DNA from: Ignavibacteriota bacterium
GTDB taxonomy: Bacteria > Bacteroidota > Ignavibacteria > UBA10030
NCBI GenBank assembly: GCA_963727825.1
Contig: CAVSHO010000011.1
Location: 151,854-215,853, forward strand
Reading direction: 5' to 3'
DNA: 64,000 nucleotides
Shown: positions 2,415 through 47,407 of the stretch, piece by piece
Position numbering within the stretch: the first letter of the stretch is position 1
Layout of the letters: each line of letters begins with the position of its first letter
The notes under the pieces: model-generated
Databases searched by the model: none
The model's input: only the letters and a program-made list of their open reading frames with translations
What the model was told of the DNA's origin: nothing
Translations under genes and position numbers: made by a program

Positions 2415-2440
2415 GTAATAGCCATAAGTTTGTTCATCGC

Positions 2441-26549: not shown

Positions 26550-26666
26550 AAATATGGGGTAAGGATCACCGAAACAAGTGGCGCTGTACACCATGGCGCC
26601 AAAGGCGCTCATTCGGCATGACAATCTATAATACGACGCAAGCGGCGGGGTATTAAACCCGAAAAA
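26550..26666. repeat. GC-rich MITE/REP-like element, second copy
   Basis: It ends in the exact 23-mer GGCGGGGTATTAAACCCGAAAAA (26644-26666) and contains the hairpin GGCGCTGTACACCATGGCGCC and CATGACAATCTAT, as at 24527. Confidence 0.5.
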
Positions 26667-26808
26667 TAATGAAACCATTAACAAATATTGTTTTAGAAGA
26701 ATATACTATGGGACAGTTTCTTCGAAGTTCAGAGATTAAAAAGTCGAATTATCAAAAGGATTTTATAGCTATTTGTTGCTGGATTAATCTATAGAAGAAT
26801 GGGTCTTT

Positions 26809-27398: not shown

Positions 27399-27405
27399 AG
27401 CTATA

Positions 27406-28020
27406 TTATGGATATGTTGAGTAATTAACAGAGACACTTATTGTTCCAGTATAATATCCCGCATTCACATTGCCCACAGGCCCTAACTTTCCATACAGAA
27501 ATATATATGCCGTTGCAGAGGGAGCTGTATATCCACCGTGTGCAGGAGTTGGGGGCGGTGCAGGTACACCCGCAGTCCTTCGAAGCATCGGAAGTGTTAT
27601 TGCGGAAAATCCTGCAGGGACTTCAACAGCACTCGTCTTTGCCGTGGCCGCATCGCTACTTCCAAGATTTGAATAGGCGAAGTTACAGGTGAACGGTATC
27701 TGGCTGCTCGCTCCTGCAGTCATGTACATAGGAGCGGATATTGTTACCGTAATATCCCTCGTCGCATCACCTACAATTGTAATATACTGAGTTTCGTTGT
27801 CGGTCAATGTGATAGTGACTGTTGCACTGCTGTTGCTAACAATTTCCGGTTGCTTATCATTAAAGTTCAAAGTAGCACCATTACTTGCGACCAGAGAAAT
27901 GCCCACAGAAGTTGTATAGGCACCAAAATTTATTTTTTGTGCAACTCCAAAGCTGATCACAAACACACTCAATAGTATCAGCATTCCCCATCGTTTCAGT
28001 ATGTGTGTAAGCGAGATCAT
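27406..28020 (-). CDS. DUF4402/SCPU-like pilin subunit (204 aa)
   Basis: Signal peptide; LNFNDKQPEIV, TVTITL and C-terminal AGYYTGTISVSVNYSTYP (the G-x-Y-x-G-T-x-x-V-x-V-x-Y pilin tail). Confidence 0.5.
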   Translation of the reverse strand: MISLTHILKRWGMLILLSVFVISFGVAQKINFGAYTTSVGISLVASNGATLNFNDKQPEIVSNSSATVTITLTDNETQYITIVGDATRDITVTISAPMYMTAGASSQIPFTCNFAYSNLGSSDAATAKTSAVEVPAGFSAITLPMLRRTAGVPAPPPTPAHGGYTAPSATAYIFLYGKLGPVGNVNAGYYTGTISVSVNYSTYP

Positions 28021-28520
28021 AAAATGTACTCTACATCGATTTTCAGTTCCATTGTGTAATTACCGGGCATAATGTCTTCAAGGCCTGAAAGTTGTCCTCC
28101 CACCCACAGATAATACTCTCCCCTATCACTCAGCTTGACTTCATTCTGCGTGAGAAGGATCGATTCCTTCTGGATATTATAAGTATTTCCGCTGACATTG
28201 TAGGTGAAGAAAAGTTGCGATTGGCCGTTTTCGTGCCGCAGAATCGATTGTTTTTCATTTGTAATCCGCACGAGACTGTTCGGAGAGCCGACGATTTTTA
28301 TCATTCCAGAATGCAAGTCTCTTTGTGGGTCAATATTGAGATCTGTCGGCGAGAGATTGCCAACTTCAAATTCCAGGTCCTTCATCACAATCAGATCTAC
28401 ATTGCCAACAACATTTGCGGAGGCAGTGATCCTTGCCACAACCTGATCCGTATTTTGTGCTTCTGCAATGTACCCGATAAGCAAGCTGATCGCAAGTAAA
28501 TATGTCAAATATTTTATCAT
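28017..28520 (-). CDS. DUF4402/SCPU-like pilin subunit (167 aa)
   Basis: Signal peptide LLAISLLIGYIAEAQ; ITASANVVGNVDLIVMKDLEFEVGNL, YYLWVGGQL and C-terminal PGNYTMELKIDVEYIL. There is a 4-nt overlap with the giant gene stop. Confidence 0.55.
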   Translation of the reverse strand: MIKYLTYLLAISLLIGYIAEAQNTDQVVARITASANVVGNVDLIVMKDLEFEVGNLSPTDLNIDPQRDLHSGMIKIVGSPNSLVRITNEKQSILRHENGQSQLFFTYNVSGNTYNIQKESILLTQNEVKLSDRGEYYLWVGGQLSGLEDIMPGNYTMELKIDVEYIL

Positions 28521-31500
28521 TTAAGTACAACCATTTTTTTAGTTTGTGTTTTTTCTGCCGCGGTCATCCTGCAGAAATATACGCCGCTGGCAACATTTGA
28601 TGCATTCCACACCACGAGATGATTCCCGGCTGAGTATTCCTGATCAGTCACAGTGGCGACTTGCTGGCCCAGGATATTGAATACCCGGATCGTTACGCGC
28701 GTTTGTGCTGGAATTGAAAAAGTAATGTTCGTCGTCGGGTTAAACGGGTTCGGATAGTTCTGTGCCAGTTGAGGAGTAGTCGGAAAATATCCTGACAAAC
28801 TATTGTTTGCCGAGACAACCAGACGGAAACGGGACTCTGAAGCGCTGCTCTTCGCTAATTTGGCAGCGGGAACTGTCTGCACGACAGGCTGTGGTAATGC
28901 ATGTAATGATTGACGATTCGATGCAACACCAGATCCCTTTTGTAAAAGACTACTGCTCGACGATATCAAGTCGGCTGGTGTAGTGTACTGGAATGTCAGG
29001 TCGCCCGCTTCTATCATTGAGGCCGCTGTCCCGGAGACATCGTCCATAAGAAAGATGTTCCAGCCAACAGGAAGCTGTCCGTTCAAATTCCAACTAAGTG
29101 TAAATGAGCCGTTAAACGGTTGACCACCAACTGTCCCGCCAACGTACAACGGAAGTGTGAACGGTTGAACAAAACCTGTATCGGGTAAATTCTGGATTTG
29201 CATAGCGGGCTGGCCCGTTCCGGCAACAGAGTAAAGTATTAAATAATTATCAGAGAGCGGAACCAAACTGAACGCATCGTACGGATCGTATGTTATCTTT
29301 CCGCTGGGGCTGAACATCAAGTACGCTTGCGTTTGAAGCCCATTAGCTGAGAGCTCTAATTCGAGAACAGGCGCCGAATCATTGATACCCAAACTTTTCT
29401 TGTCGGATGTGTTTTTTGCAAGTGAGGCCGGCTTCGCGATGCTCGTGCTTTTCTTCCCGGCAGAATCCGGCGAGACAGATGCCAACGTGCCTTTACCTGC
29501 AGATTTCTTTCCGAGGAAGTTGCCCCCTGTCGCTTTCACTCTATTGTCGCATTTCAGTGAGGGACTGGCGGCGTTTGCTTTCACCCAGAATGCTTGAAAT
29601 GGTGTTATCAATCCACCTGTAATATTTCCCGTTGAGCCATTCCAATATTTGTAGTTGCTCGTGGCTGGATCCCAAATATAAATTGTTCCATCAATGTTCG
29701 TCTTTGTCCACCCTGACCCCGCATTCCAATTGATCGTGGAAGGAGTCGGGTTGCCGACCAGGTTCCAACCTCCATCGATAGAGTCGATATCTGTAAAAGT
29801 TTTGCTTTTTGATGTATCATTGGAACCTACCGGCGTCGCAGTGACGCCAAAATCGAATGCCGAGGTTAGCAGATTCTCCGTACCTGTGGCAGTCATCGTT
29901 AGCGGAAGGACATCGCTGTAATTGCTGGCTATATCAGGTCTGAGCGCACCATTAAATACATAGTACATGTATCCCCTTCCCAACTTAACGGCAACGGAAT
30001 CCATTCTCCACGCCTGCAACGATGTGCCCTGACTCGTTTCATCCCACCACAGCAGATTGGGTTGCAGAGAGGGATAACTCGATCCCGTAAAGCCCTGTGT
30101 GACGAAGGGTGCTGCAAACATTGAACTGACTGTTACGCTATCGGGAGCGGCGAGCATGCGCCATCCTTCGGTTCCGGTTATCGTGTACATCACCTGAAGT
30201 GTAGGTGCACTGCTGCTGAGGTTGATATAGTTCGATCCTTCATTGATAATTATTTTTCCTGCGGAAATAGAAGCGCCGGATTCGATTTTGAGATTTGAAC
30301 CGGAACCGATATATACATTGTTGGTCACACTAAAACTATTATTATTATCAAACGATCCACCATTGTCTACTATTAAACTCGTAATTGTTACACTGGTGTT
30401 TAAAGTGTCTGCAAAATTATTGCTGATATGTACCGTATCAATTGACATCGGCACCCTATAATTCCAGGTAGCAGCGTTACTCCAATCTCCGCTTGCAATT
30501 GAGGTAATTAGAAGAGGCATAATATTTATGCCACCTATTGTAAAGAAATGATTATCGAGGTTTACGAGTGTCGAAGTGGCAACCGTACCCGAAGTCTGTC
30601 CATTGTCAGTAACAACCTGACCGACAGCATTCCAAGGAATAAGCCATTCGACCACCCTTGTAAGAGCGCGTGTTGATGCCGAGCTGCTCATTCCTGTGTA
30701 TTGGTCCCAGCTTAAAACAACATTTGCGCTTCCACCTGATGGACCAATAATATTCCAATATTCATTATTCACAACTGATTGTAATGGAGATACCATCTGT
30801 GTAGTGTTATATCCAGCGGTTGTAGGATCCTTATCAAAAAATTGTGCCGTCCAAGTTTGTGTTCCTGAAGTAGAAGTGCTATTTACTGAAACATATCCAA
30901 TCCGGTTTCGGCTTGAGGAATTTGCATCTCCAACCGGAAATTGGAACGATGAGCCATTAATTATTTTCTTACTTAGCGGCCCGTTTACAAATGAATTATC
31001 GCTTCCACCAACAACAGCACTTGAACTTGTATTGGTAATAGTCAGGATATTGTTGGCAATGTTATTAAAATTAATGTTTCCCAATGTCAGCAGAAGCTGA
31101 TCGCTTATATCAACAGTTCCGGTATTAATAGTTAGTCCCGCAGCATTATTTATTTCGAGGTCATAGAATGTCTCTTTCATAGAATTACCAGACATCAAAA
31201 TACTTTGTGCTGCCGAACCGCTGAAATGCACAGCACCTGTTCCAGCAGTAAAGCCAGCAATACTCGTGTTTTGATCAATCCAGTTTCCAAGAACGAAAAG
31301 GTCTTTATTGTATAGAGTATTATCCAATCTGCTGCCATCAGAAATTGTTATGTTGCCATTTATCTTTGTATCAACGCTACTGATGTACTTTTTGCCGGTT
31401 CCTGAGAATATTACTTGTTGATAAGGTTTATTTATATTTCCCGGATTTAAAGGCATTGTGCCATCAGTGTTCCCATAAAACTCAACAGTACTTGGTAAGT

Positions 31501-34500
31501 TCGCAAGAAATAAATCGTACGATCCGCCTGGGAATATGAATATAGCACTGCCAGTAGGTGACATACGTATTTTTCCTGTACCTGATACCTGCCCGATATT
31601 ATTAGATACCGTATTCGTTGCATCGAGCACTCCTTCGATATCTACTGAAGATGCAAGCGCTCCATTAACGCTAATAGTTACAGTGTGGGGAGCATTTATA
31701 ACAACCGAGTGGCCATTTGGGACAAAGGAAGGAGACCAAACTGTTGCATCATTCCAATTTCCTGATTTTGTGCTATATAATATCGGTAATGAAATAAATT
31801 GATCTCCAATCGTATACGATCCATCTAAGAGCGAAGTGCTGCTAAAAGAAAATGTTGGAGAACTTATTGTTCCTGGTGTAACAGTTGTCCATGCGGCTGT
31901 AGAATTATCGCACCGTTCAATATTCGCAGGACTTCCAGTTACATCAGCGGGGATGTACGTGTACGAATGCGTTACATTATAAGTTGATGGCGAAAAGCCT
32001 GTTGTTACCACCTTCCAATAGTAATTCAAATAATTTGAATAGTTTGCAGGATTAATTGATGGGTGTAAATCATCTATTGGAATGACGTTTATGGTTGCTC
32101 CTGCCGCATTAGTATTGGCGGTAAAGTTATATGTGCAGGGAGTGTATTTTCCATTAGCACCTATAGGATAAGTAAACGATGAAGCGCCGTTCGGGAATAT
32201 CTTTGTAACTCCTATATCACCTAATACACCATTAAGAATAACATGGTTTGTTCCACTGGCACCTACAATTATAACGCTTTGCCCAAAAGTCAAAGAATAA
32301 TTATCGATGTATAAATTACCATTAGTAAACTTGAGCTGACCGTTAATCGTCGAATTGTCGGTCATATTAACGCCATGCCCGCTGTTGTTGATTTCAATGT
32401 TACCGAAAATTCCGCTTCCGCTGCCTGTCATCCCCTGGTTGGCTGTTCCCTTAAAAATCATTCCACCGCTTGTTGAAGAACTGTAGTGAGTAGCGTTGTT
32501 GTTAACATTATTCAATAAGGTTATTGTATTTCCATTGTCGTTCAACGTGCCGGAGCTTAATGTCAAATCACCGTTAATGGTGATATTGCTGCTGCTTAAT
32601 GATATGCTATGCCCGGCAGCAGTGGAGACATCCAAATTAGCGAAGTTAGTAATATTAGAAGGAGAAGTTGTGCCGGTTATGGTTTGGTCAGTGCTTCCTA
32701 CAAAACCGGTGGATTGCGTAAGCACCTGAGTTTGATAACCACCGACATTGAGTCCAACAGTAGATGTTGTATTGTTATTTATCAAATTCCCGCCGATAGT
32801 GACATTAAGTCCATTAGTATTATAATAACTTGATGTTCCACCGATAGTCAAACTTCCGACAAGAGTTAATGGATATATTTCCTGTATTGCCGATGATTTT
32901 GTCGTCGCTTCGAGTGTAAGGTTTCCTATAGAACATGAAGATTGGAAATAGAACAATGTACTAGCAGGTGTAACACCCGAATATCCAAACTGTATCGTGC
33001 CACCGGTGACATTTTCAATGTCGGGATCTAAATACAAATCATAAGGAGAGCTATTATTGATATCATTGGCAATTATGATCGTGCCATTGCTCACGGTAAA
33101 CTTGCTTCCGCCATTTAGTACTTCAAACACGGCTCTTGACGTACTAGCATTTTTACCACCTATGGTAACGGTCCCACCTGTTTGTGTATAATTCAATGAA
33201 CCAGAGGTGGTTCCTGTTCCGCGCCTTATTTGTGAATAGACATTGAGAGATCCGCCTGAGATAATAATTTCAGGAGTGCCTGCCGAAGCATAGACAGTAT
33301 TAAAAGCATTGGCAGATGCTGATGCTATAGCTGGGCCAATATTGACTGCTCCTGCAATTATTTCCAACCGGCCAACAAGAGATAAATCAGCTGCCGCAGC
33401 ACCAGTGGCTATATTAAATGTACCTCCATTCGCAGAAAGACATGCCGTGCTCGGTATTGAGAAACCGCCTACAGAAAGAGGCATTGTCACGTTTGAAGTT
33501 AATCTGAACGTCCCGTTCTGCAAATTAAGACCGCCACCGCCCATTTGAAAACCTGTAGGATCGACATTAACATTTAAGATAGAATCTTTTGATGTGCCTT
33601 TATTGACTGTTATGCCGTATAAGCGTGTTCGTGTCGGTGTAGAAGTACTGGTAAGAGATTTACTTAATGAACCTGTAAAAATAAGAGTACAATAATAATT
33701 ATCATTAGTCGGATAGTTCGAGTCTAAATCAAATGTTCCGTTATTAATTATGTTTCCATAAACTGTTAAAGTGTTTGCTACTGAATTACCACCATTTCTA
33801 ACTTGCAGCACTCCACCGGACGCAATGTTAATATCGTTATCGGCAATTACGTACTCGGCAAGATTGTTCTGGTATTGTAATATTCCGTACTGATTTATAT
33901 TGATATTACCTTTTACTTCTATAGTTGTTGAGCTTGCACCGGCGTTAATCTGCGTTATGCAATTTGATGTGCCGCCCCCGGATGAACATCCCGCTGTCAA
34001 ATTATTATAAATCGTCAAGTTTGAATTAGGCAAAATTATATTCGATGCATTATAAGGTGAAGTAATAAGATTATAGTACCCGGTAATATTCGCTGTACCT
34101 CCACCGGGCAAAGTATACGTTGTCGGTAATGTAAGTGTCCCTGCGGCAGCCTGATAATATTCCACCGTCCCACCGGAAGGTCCTAAGAAATTTCCCCAGT
34201 CGCCAGCAGGGAAATATGTTGAGCTGGCAATTCTCAATGTTCCACTACCCGTAGAAATTGAGCCGAAACTATGTCCATTTATAATTCCTAAATCGAGTGT
34301 TGAACCGGATTCAATAGTTAAGCTGCTTGAAGAAGCTGCTACTGGAGTTGTAACTGTGTAAGGACTGCAAATGATTACCAGAGTACCAGCGGTAGGTGTG
34401 CCACCACCACCAATGCCGCCTCTTGTTGTGGACCAAGTATTAGCATTATTCCAAGGACCACTCACAACACTATATAAAGTAGGGATGGCACCAAATGCTG

Positions 34501-37500
34501 TAGCAGGATCACCGGCTGTATATTCTCCGTCAGCAATACTTGTATTATAGGTGACCTGGTTTGTAGTGGTATTCACTCCACTTGTAGTTAATGAACTCCA
34601 GCTTGAACCATTATAAAGGGCAGGAACATAATTTCCTTCAGTGCCGGCTACAAAATAATTAGATGCGGCATAATCGTAATAATAAATATTGATAACCGAA
34701 CTGGCCGGAATACCTGTGAAGCCAGTACTGGTTGCCTTCCAGTAGCAAGTTAAAGCATTATTAGAACCTTGCGCTAACGGATGCCTTCCATTAACAGGGT
34801 GTGTTGTTACCGTTCCATAGGCAGTTGGCGCAGTAGTGAATTGTATCGAGTGCGGCATATAATAGTATGTTGCATTCGTATAAAAACCAAACGGAAAAAC
34901 AAAAGCCAATGTATTGGCATAAGTTTTACTTACCCCTCCGTCGGAAAGCAAGCCGCTGGTTTGAATCATCTTGTTATTGTTAAAAGTCGTACCAATATTT
35001 ACATCGGAATAAACCATAGAATTTGCGCCTAATGCAAGGCGATAGCTGCCAATATTAAGTATATTCCACACGCCTGTTGTTGTACCAGCCAATCTTAAAT
35101 TACCTGTAACAGCCATATTAGCTGTAGCAGTAACAGAACCGCCCGTTTTATTTAATGTCAGGTTATTGAAAATTCCTGCTCCGTTTCCACTCAGCGTTTG
35201 CGCTGCGGTACCAGTCAGAATTATAGCGCCTGTACTGACTCGGCTTATGTGTGTTCCGCTATTAATAATATTTCCGTATACAGTGACAGTTTCGCCGCTG
35301 TCATTCAGAACCGAGTTCTGATCTATAAAGAGCGCACCGTTCACAATCACATTATTATTAATAATTGAGGTAAGGGATGAGTTTGTAATAGTAAGATTGT
35401 TCAGTCCACCTGTAATGGTTCCTACATTATTGAAAGCTTGAGCGCCTGTACTGTTAAATGTTGTTGTCGAAGTCGTACTAGGCGTGTACGTGCCTCCTGA
35501 CGAAATAGTAAAATTATGTCCCACGTTCAGACTAATAGTACTTGTGTTCAAGTTTAATACAGAAAGGTTGCCAATGGTTAGATCATGCAAGACACTAAGG
35601 CTCGAACCTGGTGTATTCCATTGAACAGTTGTAGTCCCTGTTCCAGTCCGGTTTGATATATTCACATTATAAAATGGGACTGTTGAATTTGCCGTGTAGA
35701 CGGTAGCAGAGCTTGGTACGTTAATATTTATTGTTCCACCGGTAACATTATAATTTCCTGCTTGAGATTCAATATCCATAATTTGGAAATCTGTAGTACC
35801 ACCAGAAAAAGTATTATTCGTAAAATTGATTGTTCCCCCGCTCATAGTAAAGGAAGAATTTACATTACTAAGTCCAAACATCGGCCCTGCATGGTTTTCT
35901 CCCAGTAATTGGAAGTTCGCTGTTCCACCTGTTTGTATATAACTCATCTGATTAGTGCCACCTGTGGAAGTCCATACCTGACTAGCAACCAATGTGCCGG
36001 TTCCTTCGATCATAATTACAGGTGTTCCTAATGTTCCTAAAACCATACCGGCTGCATCGCCCATAGAAAACGAACCCCCACTTAGACGCAATGTGCCGTA
36101 CAATGTAGCCGCCTGATAGCCGGTTCCATTAACGCCTGATAAAGTGGTTGAAACAGTAGCGCCATTAACCCATAATTCAGCAGTAGGTATAATATTAAAG
36201 TCTTGTCCGCCTTCTGTTAGAGATGGGACGTTAATATTTGCATCGAGCTTCAGCGTACCATAATGAATAAAGAGCGCCTTATAATATGCTCCATATCCAA
36301 AGCCCTCTGGTTGACCATCAAACTGGTTATTACCCTGGTTATTGGGAGCGTAAAGAGCAAAATTACTCGTACTGGAAGAATTGACTTCTAATGTATAGGT
36401 CTTGTCTGTTCCTTTTTCTACGATAAGTCTGAAAAAGTCTGTTGTTCCATTACAAGTGACAGTATTGTTTGTTGCACCATGGAAGAAAACCTGAACATCG
36501 CCACAATTTGTTCCGCCCCAGGCCGTCGTTGTAAGTATATAGTATGCACTACTGTCCGGTGATGGCAACCCTGTAAAACGAATAGAACCATTATTCACCA
36601 AATTGCCGTATAGTGATAATGTGTGGACACCAGAATAAGTTACGGGAAGTGCCGGCACCGCAGTCGGATTAGGAATTCCGTGCGCAGTTGCAAAATTATT
36701 TACCCTGACATTGCATCCGGCATCGACAGTAAAATCTCCATAGACAGTCATGTTGATAAGGCTATCTGAAGGTGTCAAATTGCCAAAATAGAGTGTCTGG
36801 GTTCCCGACGAATAATTTTTTACACTCAAATTTCCATTAATAGTATATGTTATAGGGCCAGCGTTGTTGCTAAAGAAGTAAGAACTGATTGCACTCGTAG
36901 TATTATTTGAAATTATCAAATTGTTGTACGTAAAGGGAGACGGAGTAGCGGGGGGGATGCTGACACCATTAAGATTGTAGAACTCTATCGTTCCACCGCC
37001 GCTTGCAACAAAACTCGTATAAGTTCCACCGGGGAAAGTATTAGAACTAAGCTTTATTTTCCCTTGTCCTGATACCGTTCCAAAATTATGTCCGGTAGTG
37101 GACCCAATGTCAAGAATGCCCCCTGAATTAACTGTGAGTGTATTTACTTGTTTAGTATTCGCGCTGATAGAAATTGTTCGGCCATTGAGAATGGTAACGA
37201 TATCTGAATTTGCTGGAACACCGGAATTTATCAACGTTGTACCTGAAGGATCTGATGTCCAGGAAGATGCATTGTTCCAATCGCCCGATTGATACGAATA
37301 ATATGTATTCGAAGTTGACGGTGCAGAAGAGCCGGCGGTCCACTTTCCTGAAATCGATGCAGCCGATGCACCGGATGTGTCTGTTCCAAATGGATTAGCA
37401 GCAAGTGCTGTGTGTGTGCCAGGTGCTGATACCCAGGATGATCCGCCGTTATACCAGGTATCATATAGCGATCGTCCACCGGGCGCTTCGGCATTATTAT

Positions 37501-40500
37501 ATGTAAATCTTAATTTCGTGTTTATAGCTGAGTATCCAGCGCTGATCGTGAGTGTCCAATACTTGCTTAAAGTATTTGCGCCTTGATTCACAGTAGTTGC
37601 ACTGATTTGGAGATTTCCGGTACCGGTTGCGGTAAAACCACCGATGGTAAGATCCAAAGGATCATAATACCCGCCTGACCCGACAGGATAAACGATGCCA
37701 ATACCAGTACCGCCGGTTCCGCCTGCTTTTTGTAAATAACCGGTGCCACTGGTTTGAATCATGGCTGTGGTACTATATGATCCTGCAATGGCATTTGCGG
37801 CTTGATTGCTTAGAAGTAAATTATAGTTGCCGATGGTTAAAACGCCGGAAGTCAGAGTCAAGGTACTGGAAACTGTGAGCGTGCAAGCCAGAACAACAGA
37901 CATGCCGCTTGTCTGATTCAGTGTAAGATTGTTAAACGTCTGACTTGCTGCCGTTCCGTTAATGTTTTGCGAGCCAGTGCCATCGAAGACAACCGTTCCG
38001 GTTCCGTATGTAAACGTCCCACCGTTGTTCGTCCAGTCACCGGCGATATTGTGTGTAAATGCGCCACTTGTGAATGTTGTCCCCGATCCTATCACAACAT
38101 TTCCACCGATAGTCAAACCGACAACTCCCGTTGTTGTTGCAGTGCCGCTTAATGTCAGATTGCCACCGATCGCAGTGGTGCCGGTTTGTAGAGTCTTAGC
38201 ACCACTGTTACTGAGGGTGAGATTATAATAATTAGTATTAATAACTGTCTGTGTACCTGCATATCCGTAATTAACTGTATTTCCAGTTGCTGTGGCAATA
38301 AAATCCGCAGCTGGAATACCTGGAGTCCCTGTAAAATTAATATTTATGGTGCCAGTGGTTCCATTAGTTAAGGTGCCTGTGCCAGATTGAGCTAATGCCG
38401 TTGTGACGGTTAATGTTCCATTGTTCGTATATGTACCGCTCACCGTGACGCTCGGAATTGAAATGGGATTTGTTCCACCAATCGTTTTTGTGGCACCAGA
38501 GAATGTTTGCACACCCGTGCTGGCGGTGTATGTTCCGTTATTTGTGAGACTCCCCGCAATACCAACAACCGCTGCTCCATTTTCAGTTAATGTACCGTAT
38601 ATCGTAACATCGGAACTAAAGGTAAGTGCTTCTGCCACGCTTTCTGTAAAATTACCCCCACTATTAATAGTCACTGCGCCAGTAAATGTCTTTGTGCCGG
38701 TTGTAGAAGTTATTGAGAGTGTTCCGCTCATTCCTCCACCGACGGTGGTTGTACCGTTTACTGTCAAATTGAAACCTGCCACAGTAAATGTCGTTCCATC
38801 TCCAATAACAAGACTTCCGACGGTCAAACCAACGACTGTTGTCGCAGATGCAGTTCCACTCAACGTCAAAGCACCGCTAATCGTTATCGTACCGGTTTGC
38901 AATGTTTTCGCACTGGTGTTGCTTAATGTTAAATTGTAATAATTAGTATTAATAACTGTTTGTGTACCTGCATATCCGTAATTAACTGTATTTCCATTTG
39001 TTGTGGCAATAAAATCCGCAGCTGGAATACCTGGAGTCCCTGTAAAATTAATATTTATGGTGCCGGCGGCTCCGTTAGTTAATGTGCCTGTGCCAGATTG
39101 AGCTAATGCTGTTGTGACGGTTAAAGTTCCATTGTTCGTATATGTACCGCTCACCGTGACGCTCGGAATTGAAATGGTACTCGTTCCACCAATTGTTTTC
39201 AATGAACCAGAAAATGTATGCACACCCGTGTTTGCAGTGAACGTTCCGTTGTCTGTGAAATTACCGGCAACACTGACAGTCGCTGCCACGGATTCCGTTA
39301 GTGTGCCGCCGCTGTTTATGGTAATATCCGAACCAAATGTGACCGCGGCAACAGTACCACTCAATGTTATAGAACCGCCATTATTGATAGTTACAGCGCC
39401 TGTAAAGGTATATGTATGGTTCTGAGTAATAGATATTGGGCCGCTTACAGAAGCAGTGCCACCCACACTAAAATTGAAATTTCCAATCGTGAGCGTCGTG
39501 CCGGAGCCGACGTTAAGATTGCCGCCGACAGCCAAATTGGACGTAGTAGTTGTCGATACTGTACCACTCAGAGTCATATTCCCGTTGATCGCTGTCGTAT
39601 TGTTCTGCAGAACATCTGTTCCGCTTCCGCTTAATGTAAGATTATAATAAGTCGTAGAATTAATCGTTTGTGATGCACCACTGTAATTAACCGTTCCGGC
39701 TGTATTGGCAGTAAGAGTGGTAATTGTAGGTACGGTGTTATCGCTAATGTTAAGTGTACCAGTGTTGGTAAGAGCAGTAATTGTGCCCGAACTGACAAGG
39801 TTAGTTGTGCCAGAGTTGGTAATACCAGCAATAGTGCCAGTGCCATTGAGATTAAGCGTACCAGTGTTTGTAAAATTAGCAAGAGCTGTACTAATTGCAC
39901 CAGAACCACTGATAGCTGTTGTTCCTGCATTTGTAAGAGTGGTAACTGAGCAAGTTCCACCAATATTCAGTGTGCCTGTCGAACTATTGCTCATTGTACC
40001 TGTACCAGCTAACGCTGTGCCAACAGTCAATGTTGCATTGTTTGTGTACGTGCCGTTAACTGTGACGCTTGGGATGGAAATCGCATTTGTTCCGTTAATA
40101 GTCTTTGTCGTTCCGGAAAATGTATGCACACCTGTGCTGGCGGTGTATGTTCCGTTATTTGTGAAACTTCCTGCAATACCAACAACCGCAGTCGTATTCT
40201 CCGTTAATGCACCGCCGTTATTAATAATAACATCCGAACCAAATGAAAGCGTGGCAGCAGCACTCTCAGTGATAGCGCCGCCGTTATTGATTGTTACAGC
40301 GCCGATGAAGGTCTGAGTGTTTGTTGCAGCTGTAGATATCGCCAGCGTACCACCTGTTCCGCCACCTACAGTAGTTGTGCCCATTACAGTAAGTGCATAT
40401 GTAGCGTTAGATGTAAATGTCGTTCCATCTCCTATCGAAAGATTGCCGCCGATGGTAGTTGCAATACCTGTACTGGTATTCGTACTTCCACTTGTACTAA

Positions 40501-43500
40501 GGTTATTAAACGTTGTACTTGCCGAACCACCGATGACCTGAGTTGTTCCATTGAAAGTAACAGTGCCAGTAGCGGGTGTAAATGTGCCTCCATTGTTCGT
40601 CCAGCTACCGCTTACGATAAGAGTATTTGTCGTGCTGTTGGTAAGCGTTGCTCCAGAATTAATGACAATGGAACTTGCCGTCTGATTATTTGTATTTATT
40701 GTGATAGTGCCCGTGCTTTGAATTGTAATTTGAGTTGCTGAACTTGTAGGAGCCGCTGTTGCCAGATACCAATTAATGTTGTCATGTGAGCTCTGCCAAT
40801 TTGATGCGGTGCTCCAGTTTCCTGTGGCGATGGATCTGAAATAATCAGTTGCCGAAGAAGTGAATGCTGGTCCTACAACAAAGTCACTAAAACTATTTAG
40901 TCCTGATACTTGGGTTGTATAAGGTCCGGAACCTGCATTTATTACGGGAGTTGGAGATGTCCATACCGACGCAGTATATTTACCGACAATAAAACCAGTA
41001 TTATTACTACCTCCAATAATATCACCTGCATTATAAGTGAACGTCGGAGAATAAGTAGTAAAAACAATGCCAGAATTAGTTAAAGTCCAATACAAGCCAA
41101 CATCTTTTGAACCATCTACCGGTGAGCCGGTATTAGGTTCTTGTCCGGAAGTAACGTTGGCAGTGAGGTTTCCTCCAGTCGTGACCGATGCAAAATTAAC
41201 ACTAACAGGAGTATAGCTTGAGGATGTTCCCACATCAAAAGTATAATTATTAGCTCCTGTAGCAATTGCTCTTTGCAGGTTGCCTACTATCTGCCCGCTT
41301 GTCCGAGATACAGCGTTGGCTGCACTATTTGTGACAATAAGTGTGTAAGATCCCGTAGCAATATTCCCCGAGTTTAACTTGAGGTTATTACTTACCGTTG
41401 TTGCTGCCCCAAGTGTCCCTATTTGTGTTGACTTGTCTATCGTAAGGTTATAATATGTTGTACCATTTATTGTCTGCCCTCCGGTTGTGCTGTTGTAATC
41501 TGCCGTATTGCCTGTCGCAGTCGCCGTCAGTGTAGTCGATCCAACCGTTGCTGCACCTATATTAAGAATCGCATTTGCAGCTTGCACAAAAGTACCGGTA
41601 CCTGCCCATGTGGTGGTAATATTTAATCCCCCTGCAGCAGTAATGTTATTAGTGAGACCCGTTCCCGTGCTGCTGACAGTTATATTGGTAAAGGTGGTCG
41701 CGTTTCCATTTATGGATTGTGAAGCGCCTAAAAATGTATAAGTACCTGTACCTGAATTAAATGTTCCTGTATTGGTAAAATTGCCTGTACTAATTGTCAC
41801 CGGTTCATTCACCGTATTATTATTCCATGTTCCACCGTTTATATTTAAACTGCTTACTGTTATCAGAGGTGTTGCTTGAGCCGTGGTGATATTTACAACT
41901 CCTCCGGTATTTACAGTTACAGCACCCATTGACCTTGTTCCGGTAGCATTATTAAAAGTTAATGTGCCCGTTACAGAAGTGGTCCCTGTTACAGTTAAAC
42001 TTGTTGCAAAACTGCCAACGAACAATGTACCGCCGCTGACAACAATATTACCGCTTACTGAAGTAGTAGTGGTTGTATTGCTGAATACGACTCCGGACGC
42101 ATTGCTATTATTAAACTCAAGATTACCAAATGTATTAGTTGCGCCACCGATAGTTTGAGCATTTGAACTACTCATTAAAATTTTTCCTGCACCTGAATGA
42201 GTAGCGTTATTCATTACATTACCATTTACTGTAATTGCATATCCGCCATCGGCGAATGTTTCACCGGCTGTCGCTATGGTCAAATTACCTGCAACCGTAA
42301 TCGCACTTGTTACCGTCTTTGTTCCTGAGGCGCCCGTGATTGTTAAATGACCATAGGTCGAAGGACCTACACTTGTAACGCTACCTGCAACATTTTGTGC
42401 ATTGGTGATTGTGTTATAATTTACCGTTGAAGTTGGATTCAAAGTAATATGAGCAGTAGTAAAGTTTGTTGGGAACGAAGTTATTGTTGCGGTGCCTGCG
42501 CCGATCTGCAAGGTCGCTCCGGCGGCAACACTCAAAGTTCCTGTTGCGTTTCCAGTTATCTGGAAGCCGCCATCGGCAAGTGTGCCGTTATTAATAGTAA
42601 GGTTACCACTCACTGTGAAAGCTCCGCCCAAAGTAGCCGTATTTGAAGATTTATCAACTGTAAGATTGAAATAAGGATTGGTTGTAGGCACTTTTATTGT
42701 TTGAGCTGCCGTACCCGTGTAGGTAACCAAGTTTGCACTGGTGGCAGGAATTATAGTTCCGGTTATACTCGTATTTGCCAAAGAAAAACTACCACCGGAT
42801 GCATTAGTAATAGAACTAGCTCCTGCAATGGCTGATGTCCCTGTTGAATTCAATGTTCCATTATTAGTTAATGCAGCATTTATAGTAAATGTACCAGATA
42901 CATTTACCGTAGTACTGGCATTAATAGCTGTAGCGCCCCCAATAGTTAGTAATCCAAATGATAATGGATTACCCCCTAAAGTTTTAGTCGCACCATTCAG
43001 TGAAGTGGTTCCTGTGGAAGCAGAAAGATCGAAAGATGTTCCATTGTTGGTTATATTTCCACCGAAGTTAATAGCTGCTGCAACAGCAGTCGCATTAAAT
43101 GTACCACCACTGATTATAGTTACATCACCGGTAAAAGTTTTTGAACCGGTTGCATTGTTTATTGACAAGGTACCGGTTACAGAAGTAGTCCCCGTTACAG
43201 TTAAACTTGTTGCAAAACTGCCAACGAACAATGTACCGCCGCTGACAACAATATTACCGCTTACTGAAGTAGTAGTGGTTGTATTGCTGAATACAACTCC
43301 GGATGCATTGCTATTATTAAATTCAAGATTACCAAATGTATTAGTTGCGCCACCGATAGTTTGAGCATTTGAACTACTCATTAAAATTTTTCCTGCACCT
43401 GAATGAGTAGCGTTATTCATTACATTACCATTTACTGTAATTGCATATCCGCCATCGGCGAATGTTTCACCGGCTGTCGCTATAGTCAAATTACCTGCAA

Positions 43501-43741
43501 CCGTAATCGCCTGAAGCCGCTGTTTTTGTGCCTGAGCCCTTGAATGGTAAGATTTCCATAGGTCGATGGACCGGCACTTGTAACGTTTCCAGCAACATTT
43601 TGTCCATTGTGATCGTAGAATTATAATATTACCGTTGAAGTAGCGACTAAAGTAATATGAGCAGTAGTATAAAGTTTGTTGGGAACGAAGTTCTTGTTGC
43701 GGTGCCTGCGCCGATCTGCAAGGTAGCTCCGTTGGCAACAC
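28517..43741 (-). CDS. giant T/G/N-rich beta-helix-type surface adhesin with T9SS C-terminal sorting domain (main body, 5074 aa ORF; first ~75 aa are out-of-frame noise)
   Basis: Thousands of residues of G-x-T/N-x-T beta-strand repeats (e.g. [24 protein letters not shown]). Module-start motif SG(D/N/P)W(N/S)xxxxW recurs at least 5 times. The C-terminus [38 protein letters not shown]...GVYFCRMTA...KKMVVLK is a classic Por_Secre_tail-type CTD. Confidence 0.85.
   Translation of the reverse strand: [5074 protein letters not shown]
38226..38470. repeat. internal direct repeat, copy 1 (partner 38937-39181; period 711 nt = 237 aa)
   Basis: ATAATTAGTATTAATAACTGT.TGTGTACCTGCATATCCGTAATTAACTGTATTTCCA... 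recurs with only a few mismatches. The protein motif [40 protein letters not shown] is repeated. Confidence 0.75.
41970..42304. repeat. internal near-identical direct repeat, copy 1 (partner 43176-43510; period 1206 nt)
   Basis: Over 41991-42304 versus 43197-43510 I count about 4 mismatches in 314 nt. Identity drops abruptly to about 75% with indels beyond 42304/43510. Confidence 0.8.
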
Positions 43742-44547
43742 CCAAAGTTCCTGTTGCGTTTCCAGTTATCTGAGAATCCGCCATCGGCAAGTGTGCCGTT
43801 GAGCACCGATAAATTATTACTCACCGTTGTTGCCGCGCTTAATGTGACACCAGCGCTGTTGTTGATCGTAAGATTAAGTGGTGTAGTTGATGTTAATCCA
43901 TTTCCGGTTACTTGGGCTGCTGTACCATTGTAAATGTAATTTGCTCCTGCAGTATATGTTCTTGTAGTAGTCTGAATATTACCTGTAGCTCCTGCTGTTG
44001 AAATACCGGCTGTTGAACCAACTTGAAGTGTAGCGGTTGCTGCATTGATAAACACACCAGCGCCACTTATAATCCCGGCTGGTGGCATAACAAGTGTACC
44101 ATTGTTAGTAAAAGTATTTGCAGCATTTCCTTCCGTAACAGTTCCATTGACAGTCCCTGTAGCTGTCGCTGCGAGTGTAATATTCGGCCTAGTACCATTT
44201 GTGTTATTCAATGTGAAGGTCTTTGAAGCAGCTACACTGAATGTTGTGCTGATAGTAATAGTATTCCCATTTGCAGAAGCTGCAAAAGTACAGGTTCCGT
44301 TAATAGTCAGACTATTTAAAGTTATCGTTGGTACTGCTGTAATATTGCCCGTTTGATCGGCGGGAATAATTACATCATCACCCGTAGTTGGTACCGTGCC
44401 ACCCCAATTGGCCGCTGTAGTCCATGCACCGCCTGTTGTCGGACTCCAGGTTCTAGTTGCTGCCATTACCGTTGCGCCAATGAACACAACCATCACCAAC
44501 AGAACGTTCAGTGCATGCGATATATGATATTTCTTTTTCATTACCAA
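43621..44547 (-). CDS. N-terminal fragment (signal peptide plus first module) of the same giant adhesin, separated by a multi-indel zone
   Basis: [27 protein letters not shown] signal, then [32 protein letters not shown] (the same module-start motif). The last ~50 aa are frame-garbled relative to the homologous repeat at ~42450-42650. Confidence 0.75.
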   Translation of the reverse strand: [308 protein letters not shown]

Positions 44548-44923
44548 GAATTACAAATTATTATCTATGATAGATTCTTATTCCATTATTAATCTGCGAA
44601 AGCATTGGTTGCCATCGGTTGCACATGCAATTGCTGCTTGCTAGAAAGGTACGGTGTACACACTTCAATTCTCCCCCAGAAGTTTACATACAATGCCTTT
44701 TCCAGAAGTGTCATGCCCACCTTTATTCTCTTCATATGTAAAATACGCTTTATTAAGTTCTGTTTCCCTTACAAACTTTCCAGATTTCAATGAACTTATA
44801 TAAACTGCTTAACATTTTTTTTATAGTAAAAATCTATTCATTTGATAACCAAGAATGAAAGGGATAGTATAGTTTTTTAAAAAAATCATTACTTATTTAA
44901 CCTATTTATTCATATAAATTATG

Positions 44924-44938
44924 TCAATCTACGTGCCA
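44924..44938 (-). promoter_or_regulatory. sigma54-type promoter TGGCAC-GTAGA-TTGA facing the giant adhesin operon
   Basis: The reverse complement of TCAATCTACGTGCCA matches, and about 35 nt of flanking sequence is conserved with the pilin promoter at 26252. It would give a ~375-nt leader. Confidence 0.55.
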
Positions 44939-45009
44939 TCACAGATTCCCTTTTTTAAGGAATTTTCGAGTAATCAGTTCAGACTTGTGCACTATTTCGA
45001 GAATATTGA

Positions 45010-45020
45010 CTCATAATGAG
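45010..45020. promoter_or_regulatory. palindrome CTCAT-A-ATGAG (activator-site candidate)
   Basis: It shares the TCATAATGA core with 45084-45098. It lies 77 nt from the minus-strand -24 box and 151 nt from the plus-strand one. Confidence 0.45.
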
Positions 45021-45083
45021 AACACGAATATACTGCGTAAATTAACGATAAGAATCAAAATTGGACTTTTATTATACAATTGA

Positions 45084-45098
45084 GTATCATAATGATAC
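45084..45098. promoter_or_regulatory. perfect palindrome GTATCAT-A-ATGATAC (UAS candidate shared by divergent promoters)
   Basis: Identical to 26413-26427. It lies 151 nt from the minus-strand -24 box and 73 nt from the plus-strand one. Confidence 0.55.
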
Positions 45099-45170
45099 AT
45101 GGCTGTAGCGTTTAGTATTTTGATTTGGCATTTTCTACATAATTATTAGCAATTTTTATAAAAAATATGC

Positions 45171-45185
45171 TGGCATATAGATTGA
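45171..45185 (+). promoter_or_regulatory. sigma54-type promoter TGGCAT-ATAGA-TTGA upstream of the kinase/regulator genes
   Basis: Correct GG-N10-TG(A) geometry. It overlaps the first codons of the track ORF (45167), which argues that the real kinase start is downstream. Confidence 0.5.
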
Positions 45186-45235
45186 TTGATATTCATTGTC
45201 CTTATTTAACCTATCACAATAAATTGCCTTTGATT

Positions 45236-45979
45236 ATGAAATCATTGACAAGAGGTGTAAATAGTATGTACAGTGAGCCGGCTGTTTTTGGAACTCAAAA
45301 ATTGAAGAGCAAAATTGTCAAGCAGATTTCGCATGAATTTCGTACGCCTCTTACTTCCATAATTGGCTTCGCCGAGATGCTCGAGGAAGATATCCAGATC
45401 AACGAAAATCAGCGGATAGAATATGCAAGTTATATCCGGAACGAGGGGCTGCGGCTAACGAAACTTGTTGACGACCTTGTCGGACTTGATTCTCTTGAGC
45501 AAGGACAGGTTCACCTTCAATTGGAAGAATCTGAAATTCAGGAAACAGTACGGTATGCCGCAAAGTTTGTCGCGGAACAAGCACTTAATAAGTGCATCCA
45601 CCTTTCTATCGAGATGCCAGACGAACCTATCCTTCTAAACATTGACCGTGAAAGAATCGTTCACGCTTTATATCAATTACTCCATAATGCCGTTCGATTC
45701 ACAAAACCTTGTGGCCTTATAAATCTAAAAGTAGAAGCGGCCGACAAGTTTGCTATAATCTCCATCCATGATGATGGTCCTGGTATTCCGGAAAAAGATA
45801 TACCATTTCTATTTACAAGATTTGGAAAGCTATACCGTTCAGGCGAAGAAACGCATGGCAGCGGAGTTGGACTCGCAATCGTAAAACATATTATTGATCA
45901 GCATAACGGCGATATCGCTGTACAAAGCAAAGTCGGAGAAGGTTCAACCTTCACAATACAAATTCCGATTCTTTCGTAA
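45236..45979 (+). CDS. soluble histidine kinase without recognisable input domain
   Basis: The H-box ISHEFRTPLTSIIGFAEML begins about 30 aa from the proposed start. HATPase_c motifs LLHNAVRF, DDGPGIP and GSGVGLAIVKHII are present. No TM segments. Start chosen at MKSLTRG (45236), downstream of the promoter. Confidence 0.8.
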   Translation: MKSLTRGVNSMYSEPAVFGTQKLKSKIVKQISHEFRTPLTSIIGFAEMLEEDIQINENQRIEYASYIRNEGLRLTKLVDDLVGLDSLEQGQVHLQLEESEIQETVRYAAKFVAEQALNKCIHLSIEMPDEPILLNIDRERIVHALYQLLHNAVRFTKPCGLINLKVEAADKFAIISIHDDGPGIPEKDIPFLFTRFGKLYRSGEETHGSGVGLAIVKHIIDQHNGDIAVQSKVGEGSTFTIQIPILS

Positions 45980-46027
45980 TGATTCATTAGAAATCCTTTT
46001 TTTCCAAATAGAGGAATTAAATCTATA

Positions 46028-47407
46028 TTGAGCGCAGAACGAATCTATATTGTTGATGATGAAATAACAATTGCCAAGCTGCTTGAATTGTGGGTCGGGC
46101 ATCGATGGGGGTACTCTGTTGAGGTTTTCCATAATGGAAAAGATTTTTTAGATCGCATAGTAGAGCCTCCTGACCTTGTATTGTTGGACATTATGCTGCC
46201 AGATATAAGTGGTATTGATTTATTGAAAGAGTTCAAGCGACGCTATCCCGAGCTGCCTGTTATCATGCTTTCTGCGCAGGAAAGTATCGAGGTGGCGGTT
46301 AATACTCTTAAACTAGGAGCCGCCGACTATTTTAGTAAACCAATTGACATGCCGAAGCTGGAACTTGCAATAAAAAATTCTCTCAAACTTGCAGCATTAT
46401 CCCGTGAAGTTGAGAATTTGCATGAAAGCGTCGGAACACGTTTGCATTTCGACAATATAGTTTCACAGAGCGGGGAAATGCAAGATGTGTTTAAACTCGT
46501 GAACAAGGTAATGCACATCGATATTTGTGTTCTCATATTAGGCGAAAGTGGCACAGGCAAAGAGCTCGTAGCTCGTGCAATTCATTATAACAGCGACCGC
46601 CGAAGTGGTCCATTTGTAGTCGTGAATTGCGCTTCAATTCCTCACGACTTATTAGAAAGCGAACTCTTCGGGCATGAGAAGGGTTCATTTACCGGCGCAA
46701 TTCAGCGGCGAATTGGAAAATTTGAGCAGGCGAATGGAGGTACAATATTTTTAGATGAGATCGGCGAACTTGATCAAAGCCTGCAATCAAAAATACTCCG
46801 TGTTATCCAGGAAAAACAATTTGATCGAGTAGGAGGAAGTGAGACAATCACAACCGATGCACGACTTATTTTTGCTACACACCGCGATCTTTGGGAAGAA
46901 GTGAAACAGAAGAATTTCCGCGAAGATTTATACTTCCGTATTTCGACATTTCCGATTATGCTTCCTCCTCTCCGCCAGCGGAAATCGGATATTCTTTTGC
47001 TTGCAGACCATTTTATAAAAAAACTTGGGGAGGAACTCGGGAAGCCAAATATTCAATTTTCACGCAAAGCTCTCGACTTGCTCTACAACTATCCATGGCC
47101 AGGCAACGTGCGCGAATTAGAAAATGTAATTCAACGCGGTTTGGTCTTGACAGACGGACAGATATTTAGCGAGCGAGAATTACCGATCTTTATTCAGTCT
47201 TATGGTTCTGCTGAAACAGACATCAAACAAAATTCAATCTTCCAAGAGAGCCAGGATTCAATCATTTCATTCGAGAAAATTAAAGAAACCGCTATCCGAC
47301 AAGCTTTGAAAAATACAAACGGGAATATAGCAGAAGCTGCAAAGAAATTAAAAATCGGCCGTGCTACTCTTTATCGGCTCGTAGAAAAATACAAAATTCA
47401 AATTTGA
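46028..47407 (+). CDS. NtrC-family sigma54-dependent response regulator (REC-AAA+-Fis HTH)
   Basis: REC domain (IYIVDDE..LVLLDIMLPD..KP). AAA+ domain with GESGTGKELVARAIH, GSFTGA (the GAFTGA loop) and IFLDEIGEL. C-terminal HTH NGNIAEAAKKLKIGRATLYRLVEKY. TTG start. Confidence 0.92.
   Translation: MSAERIYIVDDEITIAKLLELWVGHRWGYSVEVFHNGKDFLDRIVEPPDLVLLDIMLPDISGIDLLKEFKRRYPELPVIMLSAQESIEVAVNTLKLGAADYFSKPIDMPKLELAIKNSLKLAALSREVENLHESVGTRLHFDNIVSQSGEMQDVFKLVNKVMHIDICVLILGESGTGKELVARAIHYNSDRRSGPFVVVNCASIPHDLLESELFGHEKGSFTGAIQRRIGKFEQANGGTIFLDEIGELDQSLQSKILRVIQEKQFDRVGGSETITTDARLIFATHRDLWEEVKQKNFREDLYFRISTFPIMLPPLRQRKSDILLLADHFIKKLGEELGKPNIQFSRKALDLLYNYPWPGNVRELENVIQRGLVLTDGQIFSERELPIFIQSYGSAETDIKQNSIFQESQDSIISFEKIKETAIRQALKNTNGNIAEAAKKLKIGRATLYRLVEKYKIQI

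Follow-up and report, generated by a model that had tools for sequence, protein, structure and literature searches.

A 64,000-nucleotide (nt) stretch of DNA from an Ignavibacteriota bacterium (contig CAVSHO010000011.1, positions 151,854 to 215,853; hereafter the window) contains, between the gene of a giant secreted protein and the genes of a histidine kinase and an NtrC-type activator, a segment at 44924-45185 that we read, with a probability of roughly 80%, as a bidirectional enhancer-dependent control region. It would consist of divergent sigma-54 promoters through which the NtrC-type pair is autoregulated and co-activates surface genes. The region is conserved in Ignavibacteria, where one activator probably switches on its own genes and a surface-fiber/giant-adhesin cluster from back-to-back sigma-54 promoters. 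The phylogenetic footprint described below strongly supports two divergent sigma-54-type promoters that share putative enhancer sites for the adjacent activator. The elements in question are listed here, with conservation given as the majority-base value across 19 loci.

44924-44938, minus strand: P(-), sigma-54-type promoter of the giant-protein operon, TGGCAC-GTAGA-TTGA = TGGCACGTAGATTGA, conserved in 19 of 19 unique orthologous regions (0.92)
44990-45002: site 0, a third, weaker activator-type site, degenerate in the window (CACTATTTCGAGA), conservation 0.79
45009-45021: site 1, ACTCATAATGAGA, with palindromic core CTCATAATGAG at 45010-45020, conservation 0.91
45063-45072: conserved block GGACTTTTAT between sites 1 and 2, conservation 0.92
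45084-45098: site 2, the perfect palindrome GTATCATAATGATAC, conservation 0.91
45171-45185, plus strand: P(+), sigma-54-type promoter of the kinase-regulator operon, TGGCAT-ATAGA-TTGA = TGGCATATAGATTGA, from a pattern scan and conservation (0.95)
45266-45979, plus strand: histidine kinase, 237 amino acids (aa), with Pfam HisKA and HATPase_c only; ribosome-binding site (RBS) AAGAGGTG at 45250-45257
46028-47407, plus strand: NtrC-type enhancer-binding protein, 459 aa, with a receiver, a sigma-54 AAA+ domain with GSFTGA, and a Fis-type HTH_8 domain

A canonical sigma-54 promoter has GG at -24/-25 and TG(C) at -12/-13, with exactly ten bases from GG to GC, in a TGGCAC-N5-TTGC context. All instances found here keep TGGCAY, the sigma-54 spacing, and the TTG; the -12 base deviates at all structural promoters and at ten of 19 kinase promoters. 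At P(-), the -24 GG occupies 44936-44937 and the -12 base is an A at 44924, which places the predicted transcription start at about 44912. At P(+), whose motif CTGGCATATAGATTG is almost invariant among relatives, the predicted start is at about 45197, 69 nt 5′ of the kinase ATG. The centers of the two motifs are separated by 247 bp in the window. In relatives, P(-) lies 60-90 nt upstream of the RBS and start codon of a signal-peptide gene, and a start about 12 nt past the -12 element fits because the RBS and start codon are found at that distance downstream.

Between the promoters, the palindromes of the putative activator type, TMTCAT-A-ATGAKA, are arranged nearly as mirror images. The center of site 1 is 77 nt from the outer -24 T of P(-) (about -103 relative to the predicted start) and 156 nt from that of P(+), and the center of site 2 is 80 nt from the -24 T of P(+) (about -106) and 153 nt from that of P(-). 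The remeasured distances are thus 77/153 nt on the minus side and 80/156 nt on the plus side. A preliminary description of this DNA, made from the sequence alone, had quoted both promoters and both palindromes, and all four elements were found exactly as quoted. Its mirrored geometry likewise stands to within about 3 nt and is kept in relatives, although the distances that it gave (77/151 and 73/151) had been taken from different ends of the -24 box. It counted two shared palindromes, a number that must now be raised to at least three activator-type sites by the addition of site 0. The center of site 0 lies 58-61 nt from the -24 box of P(-), and about 58 nt in the window. Measured from the predicted starts, the palindromic sites fall at about -85, -103, and -179 for P(-), and at -106, -182, and -200 for P(+).

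The same elements are retained in relatives, whose loci are cited here by L numbers where they must be told apart. Site 1 is found with 0-3 mismatches, 74-80 nt from P(-), in 18 of 19 loci, with a degenerate copy (5 mismatches) in L011, and site 2 occurs as TATCATAATGATA or TACCATAATGATA, 79-84 nt from P(+), in 17 of 19. Site 0, which is degenerate in the window, reads TATCATATTGAGA in L005, L083, and L084. Inverted repeats about 80-200 nt upstream, as expected of upstream activator sites, are conserved with the regulator in both sequence and spacing in 17-18 of the 19 loci. The GGACTTTTAT block, which the preliminary description did not mention, matches the palindromes in conservation; the k-mer ATAAAAGTC from it is common to 5 of 9 regions. 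It could be the site of a bending protein or a degenerate fourth half-site 21 nt from the center of site 2.

The footprint was assembled in two steps. A one-genome-per-species scan gave twelve Ignavibacteriota loci with activator orthologues of 68-95% identity, and the divergent promoter pair is present in all nine genome-derived orthologous loci that include the upstream DNA. Addition of metagenome loci brought the set to 19 non-identical orthologous intergenic regions from Ignavibacteriota genomes and metagenomes. In their alignment, islands of conservation coincide with both promoters and with the palindromes, and the spacers have diverged: the three spacers score 0.55-0.63, compared with the values of 0.91-0.95 listed above for the promoters and for sites 1 and 2. 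The interval between the -24 boxes measures 231-242 nt in all but one of the 19 loci. When shared 7- to 9-mers are counted without bias, exactly the words of the promoters and palindromes emerge, and the recognition helix of the activator's helix-turn-helix (HTH) domain is nearly invariant in 13 orthologues, matching the near-invariant sites. On these comparisons, the central proposal of the preliminary description, divergent sigma-54-type promoters with shared activator sites, is supported by the footprint in 19 loci, by TTGC at nine kinase promoters (see below), by the recognition helix, and by the k-mers.

The motifs are also more frequent than expected by chance. The window has four copies of TGGCAYN5TTGA, all of them intergenic, where 0.38 would be expected, and the count never rose to four in 100 shuffles; the canonical TTGC version has no occurrence in the window. 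A relaxed sigma-54-like scan (GG and TG required, at most two mismatches) returned 30 matches, of which 5 are intergenic (intergenic DNA makes up 14% of the window), and four of these five are the TGGCAYN5TTGA copies. Each of the three exact copies of TCATAATGA lies no more than 160 nt upstream of a TGGCAYN5TTGA promoter, as do all but one of the five distinct 13-mer matches to TMTCATNWTGAKA. In 318 kb of Ignavibacteriota DNA, a sample enriched for this locus, so that its figures gauge conservation rather than genome-wide frequency, there are 53 promoter matches against 3.3 expected, and a palindrome stands 70-90 or 145-165 nt upstream of 41 of these 53, against 0.03 expected. A genome-wide motif scan against shuffled controls and a search for promoter-palindrome co-occurrence had been suggested as checks on the initial proposal; the enrichment in the window and the pairing in the locus-biased sample are in its favor.

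The two remaining copies of the promoter motif lie elsewhere in the window.

26252-26266, minus strand: P26252, a second structural promoter, TGGCAC-GGAGA-TTGA, from the pattern scan
26319-26427: enhancer region of P26252, with GTCCATAATGAGA, ACTCATATTGAGA, and GTATCATAATGATAC centered at 26325, 26344, and 26420 (59, 78, and 154 nt from the -24 T, respectively)
19119-19318, plus strand: orphan promoter copy, with TGGCATATAGATTGA at 19234-19248 and half of site 2 at 19144-19158

About 200 nt of the P26252 region can be aligned with the P(-) region with no large gaps, and its enhancer geometry is the same as that at P(-), with GTCCATAATGAGA at the position equivalent to site 0. The orphan copy has a different origin. 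Positions 19119-19272 match 45059-45209 (71%), and 19282-19318 (37 nt) match the kinase/regulator junction at 46012-46048. Because a promoter part and a junction part both match there, a second kinase-regulator module was deleted at 19119-19318, and by these alignments the 19234 copy is its relic. The relic promoter faces the 3′ end of the gene at 19390-19851 in the antisense direction, and the relic is also present in a 95%-identical relative (L081, promoter at 16303). Four TGGCAY-N5-TTGA sites had been counted initially; all four exist, but the 19234 copy is a remnant of the deleted module. The metagenome-assembled genome (MAG) MFD05942.bin.2.234 carries two intact paralogous kinase-regulator modules with divergent promoters on different contigs (L008 and L009), which indicates that the module duplicates within genomes.

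The gene next to P(+) encodes a kinase without a sensor domain, in which only about 13 residues precede HisKA. The activator encoded after it has the full set of features of an NtrC-type enhancer-binding protein, namely a receiver (Response_reg, 92 bits), an AAA+ domain with a GAFTGA-type loop (Sigma54_activat, 235 bits), and a Fis-type HTH (HTH_8, 34.5 bits). Its GSFTGA loop, already pointed out in the preliminary description, is confirmed in the sequence, together with a Walker A motif GESGTGKE and the phospho-acceptor context LLDIMLPD. The protein remains below every NCBIfam equivalog cut-off (AtoC 446 vs 714 bits, NtrC 413 vs 559, and ZraR 392 vs 760). By these scores it is best classed as a generic NtrC-family member that is an orthologue of no named ZraSR, AtoSC, or NtrBC system. 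Its best relatives of solved structure are Aquifex NtrC-family proteins (1ny5, 4l4u), LuxO, and ZraR. In the two most divergent orthologous loci (L010 6894-7317 and L011 7636-8001), the only protein encoded in the gap from P(+) to the activator gene has 96-138 aa and matches the HisKA (phospho-acceptor) part of the kinase, with no room for the ATPase domain.

The -12 base differs in behavior between the two promoter classes. At the structural-gene promoter P(-), it is A in 19 of 19 loci, and it is also A at the internal structural promoters (window 26252, L004 6092, L005 5832, L008 6072, and L009 5973). At the kinase promoter of the same 19 loci, it is A in nine, C in nine, and T in one. L083 and L084 are identical at both promoters and in all three site 13-mers, save for the -12 base of the kinase promoter. 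Since canonical TTGC is present at nine of the 19 kinase promoters, the polymerase of this clade evidently accepts it, and a lineage-wide shift of sigma-54 specificity to -12 A was rejected on the same ground. The earlier suggestion that TTGA is a lineage-specific variant is therefore not borne out: A is fixed only at structural promoters, the kinase promoter has A or C, and A is found elsewhere as well. From this comparison of promoter sequences, TTGA is evidently a property of one promoter class and not a lineage-wide change.

The observations to be accounted for are the sequences themselves and their placement, which is not random; the conservation of both sequence and spacing across 19 loci; the domains of the activator; and the identity of the target genes. 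The model proposed for them supposes the presence and use of sigma-54, binding of the palindromes by the adjacent activator, transcription from the predicted starts, and feedback within the circuit. At P(-), P(+), and P26252, sigma-54 RNA polymerase would wait in the closed state. Dimers of the phosphorylated activator would occupy the TMTCAT-A-ATGAKA palindromes, with site 1, aided by the weak site 0, being proximal for P(-) (about -103) and site 2 being proximal for P(+) (about -106). Each proximal site may double as the distal site (about -180) for the opposite promoter. Assembled into an AAA+ ring, the activator would then reach the polymerase by looping and use ATP for promoter opening. 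The predicted outcome is positive autoregulation of the kinase-regulator pair and co-activation of the surface-structure genes, with P26252 presumably served by the same three-site enhancer.

Several observations weigh against this interpretation. No rpoN gene was found in the 64-kb window (Pfam on 30 open reading frames) or in the Ignavibacteriota loci among 162 loci (tblastn with an approximate Escherichia coli RpoN query); the sole match among the 162 came from a gammaproteobacterial locus (L035). A literature search for sigma-54 or rpoN in Ignavibacteria found no paper. At -12, C is among the five most constrained positions in E. coli (125/135; PMC4591121), and here A is present at every structural promoter. 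The leader from P(-) to the giant gene in the window, about 365 nt, contains an insertion of about 290 nt (44603-44891) without counterpart in L001 and L102, and other promoters could sit within it. Site 1 overlaps an unconserved sigma-70-like sequence, TTGACT-17-TATACT, and sigma-70-like matches occur at chance (6 found vs 5.1 expected). Sigma-70-type promoters or terminators in 44500-45300 were accordingly rejected as the main explanation, being at chance level. Regarding the polymerase subunit, sigma-54 and its activators co-occur near-universally in diderm bacteria (PMC3162934), which, together with the intact activator, suggests that sigma-54 is encoded in the genome.

Other explanations of the conserved elements were weighed against bidirectional sigma-54 control. 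The 15-mers might be real sigma-54 promoters while the palindromes are operators of another protein, such as a repressor or nucleoid protein, with the activator binding, for example, GGACTTTTAT or acting from solution. The extra conserved block at 45063-45072 would suit this arrangement, as would the distinct sequences that sites 1 and 2 keep across loci (CTCAT vs ATCAT), which could mean two proteins. It nevertheless appears unlikely, as no regulator other than the kinase and the activator is kept beside the sites in every locus, the positions of the sites (about -85 to -180) are typical of enhancers, the three-site array recurs at the second structural promoter without another regulator nearby, and the near-invariant recognition helix parallels the near-invariant TMTCATAATGAKA-type palindromes.

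Alternatively, the conserved 15-mers may not be sigma-54 promoters at all, but sites of another factor, or TTGA may be a sigma-70-type -35 element with TGGCA as an upstream activator half-site. The replacement of C by A at -12 of all structural promoters is in keeping with this, and TTGACA, a perfect -35 hexamer, is present in the window, L001, L003, and L005. Against it stand the GG-to-TG spacing, which is exactly sigma-54-like in every instance, the TTGC of nine of 19 kinase promoters, the chance level of sigma-70-like matches in the region, and the neighboring gene for a dedicated sigma-54 activator; moreover, neither a -10 element 17 nt downstream nor the CA of TTGACA is conserved. We regard this explanation as very improbable. 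Hardly any weight can be given to the idea that the motif repeats (19234, 26252, 44924, and 45171) reflect nothing more than recent segment duplication, without regulatory function. Duplication has taken place, given the alignment of the P26252 and P(-) regions over about 200 nt, the 19234 copy demonstrably left over from a duplicated module, and the MAG with two paralogous modules. However, among orthologues with 68-94% identical activators, the spacers have diverged while motifs and spacing have been kept, which argues for selection rather than recent copying.

If the elements are sigma-54 promoters, their -12 base has parallels in other bacteria. In the E. coli chromatin immunoprecipitation sequencing (ChIP-seq) tables of Bonocora et al. 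(PMC4591121), the -12 base of 135 sigma-54-bound sites is C in 125, A in 6, and T in 4. The E. coli sites with -12 A include CTGGCATGATTTGTGAA (hydN, a confirmed promoter), GTGGCATGAATATTGAT, and TTGGCACGGCAATTGAT (PMC4591121). These hydN-type GA sites resemble those described here in being sigma-54-bound with A in place of C at -12, but they are rare exceptions (6/135), whereas A is the rule at the structural promoters here (19/19 and the internal promoters). On Desulfobacteraceae contigs (L104 3888-3902; also L013, L014, and L105), TGGCACGATAATTGA, a sigma-54-like site with -12 A from another phylum, is found 96 nt upstream of a 44%-identical homologue of the activator. A -12 A is thus rare yet known, a non-canonical deviation that sigma-54 tolerates in E. 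coli, and its fixation at structural promoters is the unusual aspect.

Non-consensus -12 elements have been tied to weaker closed-complex repression and activator-bypass (leaky) transcription in E. coli (work cited in PMC4551910), the repressive fork-junction lock of sigma-54 being loosened, which hints at a tuning role of the -12 A at structural promoters. The contrast with the kinase promoter is informative because in the same genomes the latter drifts among A, C, and T. A more speculative proposal, which we think doubtful, is that the invariant A is a selected design feature rather than a product of drift. With the sensor-less kinase and autoregulation, it could make a self-priming bistable ON/OFF switch; or the clade's sigma-54 may read an extended GATTGM -12 element. 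If a bistable switch exists, it would lead to phase-variable expression of a fimbria-like fiber and a type IX-secreted giant adhesin. The A/C/T variation is in any case a natural series for studying how the -12 base tunes sigma-54 promoters.

The genes that the structural promoters would serve are all on the minus strand and are listed here in order of transcription.

28517-44547, minus strand: giant secreted protein gene, about 5,380 aa, with signal peptide, G8 domain, and type IX C-terminal sorting domain; first gene of the P(-) operon
27021-28520, minus strand: three small secreted proteins of 167, 204, and 138 aa, two with weak DUF4402 matches; same operon
25657-26181, minus strand: 174-aa gene, 71 nt past the P26252 promoter
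24642-25490, minus strand: chaperone gene, 282 aa, following the 174-aa gene
21127-24384, minus strand: usher-like gene, 1085 aa, with TPR repeats and, over 54 residues, a weak match to part of Usher (E 9e-4)

The frame of the giant gene is broken near 43620-43790, giving a 308-aa N-terminal open reading frame (ORF; 43621-44547) and a 5074-aa ORF (28517-43741); this could be a pseudogene, slippage, or an assembly error. A third short ORF at 43647-43790 carries the expected repeat sequence, so that the frame shifts twice inside a repeat. The equivalent proteins of L161 and L162 have a recorded Por_Secre_tail domain. The frames of the three small genes overlap one another and the end of the giant gene. 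The candidates for small subunits match DUF4402 weakly in the window and strongly in L004, where both genes after sigma-54-type promoters are clear DUF4402 members (E 1e-25); a literature search on DUF4402 found nothing useful. The preliminary description took a giant-adhesin operon as the target. This holds for the window, where the giant gene heads the P(-) operon, but in most relatives the gene 60-90 nt past P(-) encodes a small signal-peptide protein, and the target is the fimbria-like cluster rather than a giant adhesin.

By sequence, the 282-aa chaperone matches nothing in Pfam or the PDB. Its AlphaFold2 model, built from a 38-sequence alignment, is a confident two-domain beta-sandwich (predicted local distance difference test, pLDDT, 82; predicted template modeling score, pTM, 0.69). 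The top PDB matches of this model in Foldseek are mostly periplasmic fimbrial chaperones, namely CfaA, EcpB, SafB, CsuC, Caf1M, FimC, and PapD (E about 1e-8 to 1e-6, probability 1.0), and the Enterococcus WxL-interacting protein WxLIP is interleaved among them at ranks 1, 3, and 10. Homologues are named "P pilus assembly chaperone PapD" and "fimbrial biogenesis chaperone" in JGI and NCBI. As modeled, the protein has the two Ig-like domains of a PapD-like chaperone. At the sequence level, none of the cluster components searched has a relative of solved structure or a described function. Taken together, the presumed target genes form a chaperone-usher-like fimbrial cluster (DUF4402, PapD-fold chaperone, and usher-like protein) with a type IX-secreted giant protein.

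The same gene order is found in the window (21127-44547), in Cognataquiflexum aquatile GCA_003316845.1 (L161 3918-13730), and in a Kryptonia genome (L162 5302-14729). It begins with a large protein that has a type IX tail; three small proteins and then one more, at the position of DUF4402, come next, and the PapD-fold chaperone is followed by a protein of about 900-1180 aa that resembles an usher. Pfam DUF4402 at the shared position is recorded only in L161, and usher-like TPR repeats are recorded in the window and in L162. The C. aquatile and Kryptonia genomes have the cluster without the kinase-regulator pair, and a search for sigma-54-like promoters at the equivalent positions in these two genomes found none. 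Because they share the gene order without the regulators and promoters, the structural cluster is widespread in the FCB (Fibrobacteres, Chlorobi, and Bacteroidetes) group, and only this Ignavibacteriales clade has the sigma-54 control module. A clade-specific insertion of the giant adhesin was considered and rejected, as a large type IX protein heads the same order in both of these genomes. The cluster shared by Bacteroidota, Kryptonia, and Ignavibacteriota looks like an undescribed surface-fiber system that pairs type IX cargo with chaperone-usher-like parts.

Some further features of the region were noted. In place of the insertion of about 290 nt in the P(-) leader, the close relatives L001 and L102 have about 35 nt, and no second copy of it was found in the DNA compared. 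A small ORF at 44589-44735 starts inside the insertion and extends 14 nt beyond its lower edge, with a good RBS (AAAGGTGGG) before an internal ATG. An exact 14-mer, CTTATTTAACCTAT, is present at 44892-44905 and 45201-45214, at about +5 to +20 of both predicted transcripts. The copies share their DNA orientation, so that one leader RNA would be able to pair with the other along 14 nt. As a part of the mechanism the 14-mer was discarded, since it is exact only in the window, partly kept in L001, and not conserved further. An Rfam search of leaders and intergenic regions found no RNA family. A repeat of about 35 nt, ACGCAAGCGGCGGGGTATTAAACCCGAAAAA, with a short GC hairpin, is found at 26633-26669 and 19970-20006, in two intergenic regions of the fimbria-like cluster. 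Rfam gave no match for the copy at 26633-26669, and the copy at 19970-20006 was covered only by the whole-window scan at gathering thresholds. At the other end of the window, 721-5839 is likely an integration hot spot with a disrupted gene. It contains tyrosine-integrase genes at 721-1770 and 4757-5839, each adjoining a tRNA or tRNA fragment (1867-1941 and 4625-4680), and between them an arabinofuranosidase gene split into overlapping ORFs (2646-3362 and 3313-4215).

The closest analogue of the proposed control region is zraP-zraSR of E. coli and Salmonella (ZraR/HydG), which likewise has a two-component NtrC-type activator, divergent sigma-54 promoters, and shared intergenic sites (PMC4987338). 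ZraR controls the divergent sigma-54 promoters of zraP and zraSR, so that, as proposed here, one promoter serves the kinase-regulator operon itself and the other an envelope-related target (PMC4987338). In vivo, sigma-54 occupies the promoters of both zraP and zraSR (PMC4591121 Table 1). The differences lie in the spacing of the motif centers, which are 154 bp apart in zra and 247 bp here; in the -12 element, which is canonical GC at both zra promoters and has A at P(-) here; and in the three-site enhancer. ZraS is a membrane sensor kinase, whereas the kinase here lacks a sensor domain, and the zra target is a periplasmic chaperone rather than fimbria-like/adhesin genes. Nor is the activator a ZraR orthologue, given the equivalog score reported above (392 bits against a cut-off of 760).

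NtrB-NtrC offers a second comparison. At glnAp2, the sigma-54 promoter is preceded, at about 100-140 nt, by palindromes to which activator dimers bind, several sites cooperate in forming the active oligomer, and the regulator-encoding operon is itself activated, all in the service of nitrogen control. The NtrC site is TGCACC-N5-GGTGCA, and the glnAp2 promoters are not back to back. The upstream palindromes, multiple sites, and autoactivated operon are thus alike, but the site sequence, promoter layout, and nitrogen role differ, and the activator here scores below the NtrC cut-off (413 vs 559 bits). In Pseudomonas and Myxococcus, the NtrC-type pair PilS-PilR and sigma-54 drive the type IV pilin gene, with PilS as a membrane sensor. 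The likeness there is the use of an NtrC-type pair and sigma-54 for a surface-filament subunit gene; the machinery here, however, is chaperone-usher-like, with a PapD-fold chaperone and DUF4402, and not a type IV pilus.

As an instance of a familiar regulatory design, the region is solid but rather ordinary. It closely parallels zraP-zraSR, changes no concept, and would not surprise a specialist. Sigma-54 generally governs the bacterial exterior, including pili and flagella (PMC3162934), and the locus fits this view. Its value is that of a well-supported and useful regulon prediction in an unstudied phylum: for a group in which no published sigma-54 work was found, it offers a testable regulon model with a regulator, a probable binding motif, three promoters, and their targets. 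It would also tie sigma-54 control to a cluster of DUF4402, PapD-fold chaperone, usher-like, and type IX giant-protein genes that is present in cultured Bacteroidota as well.

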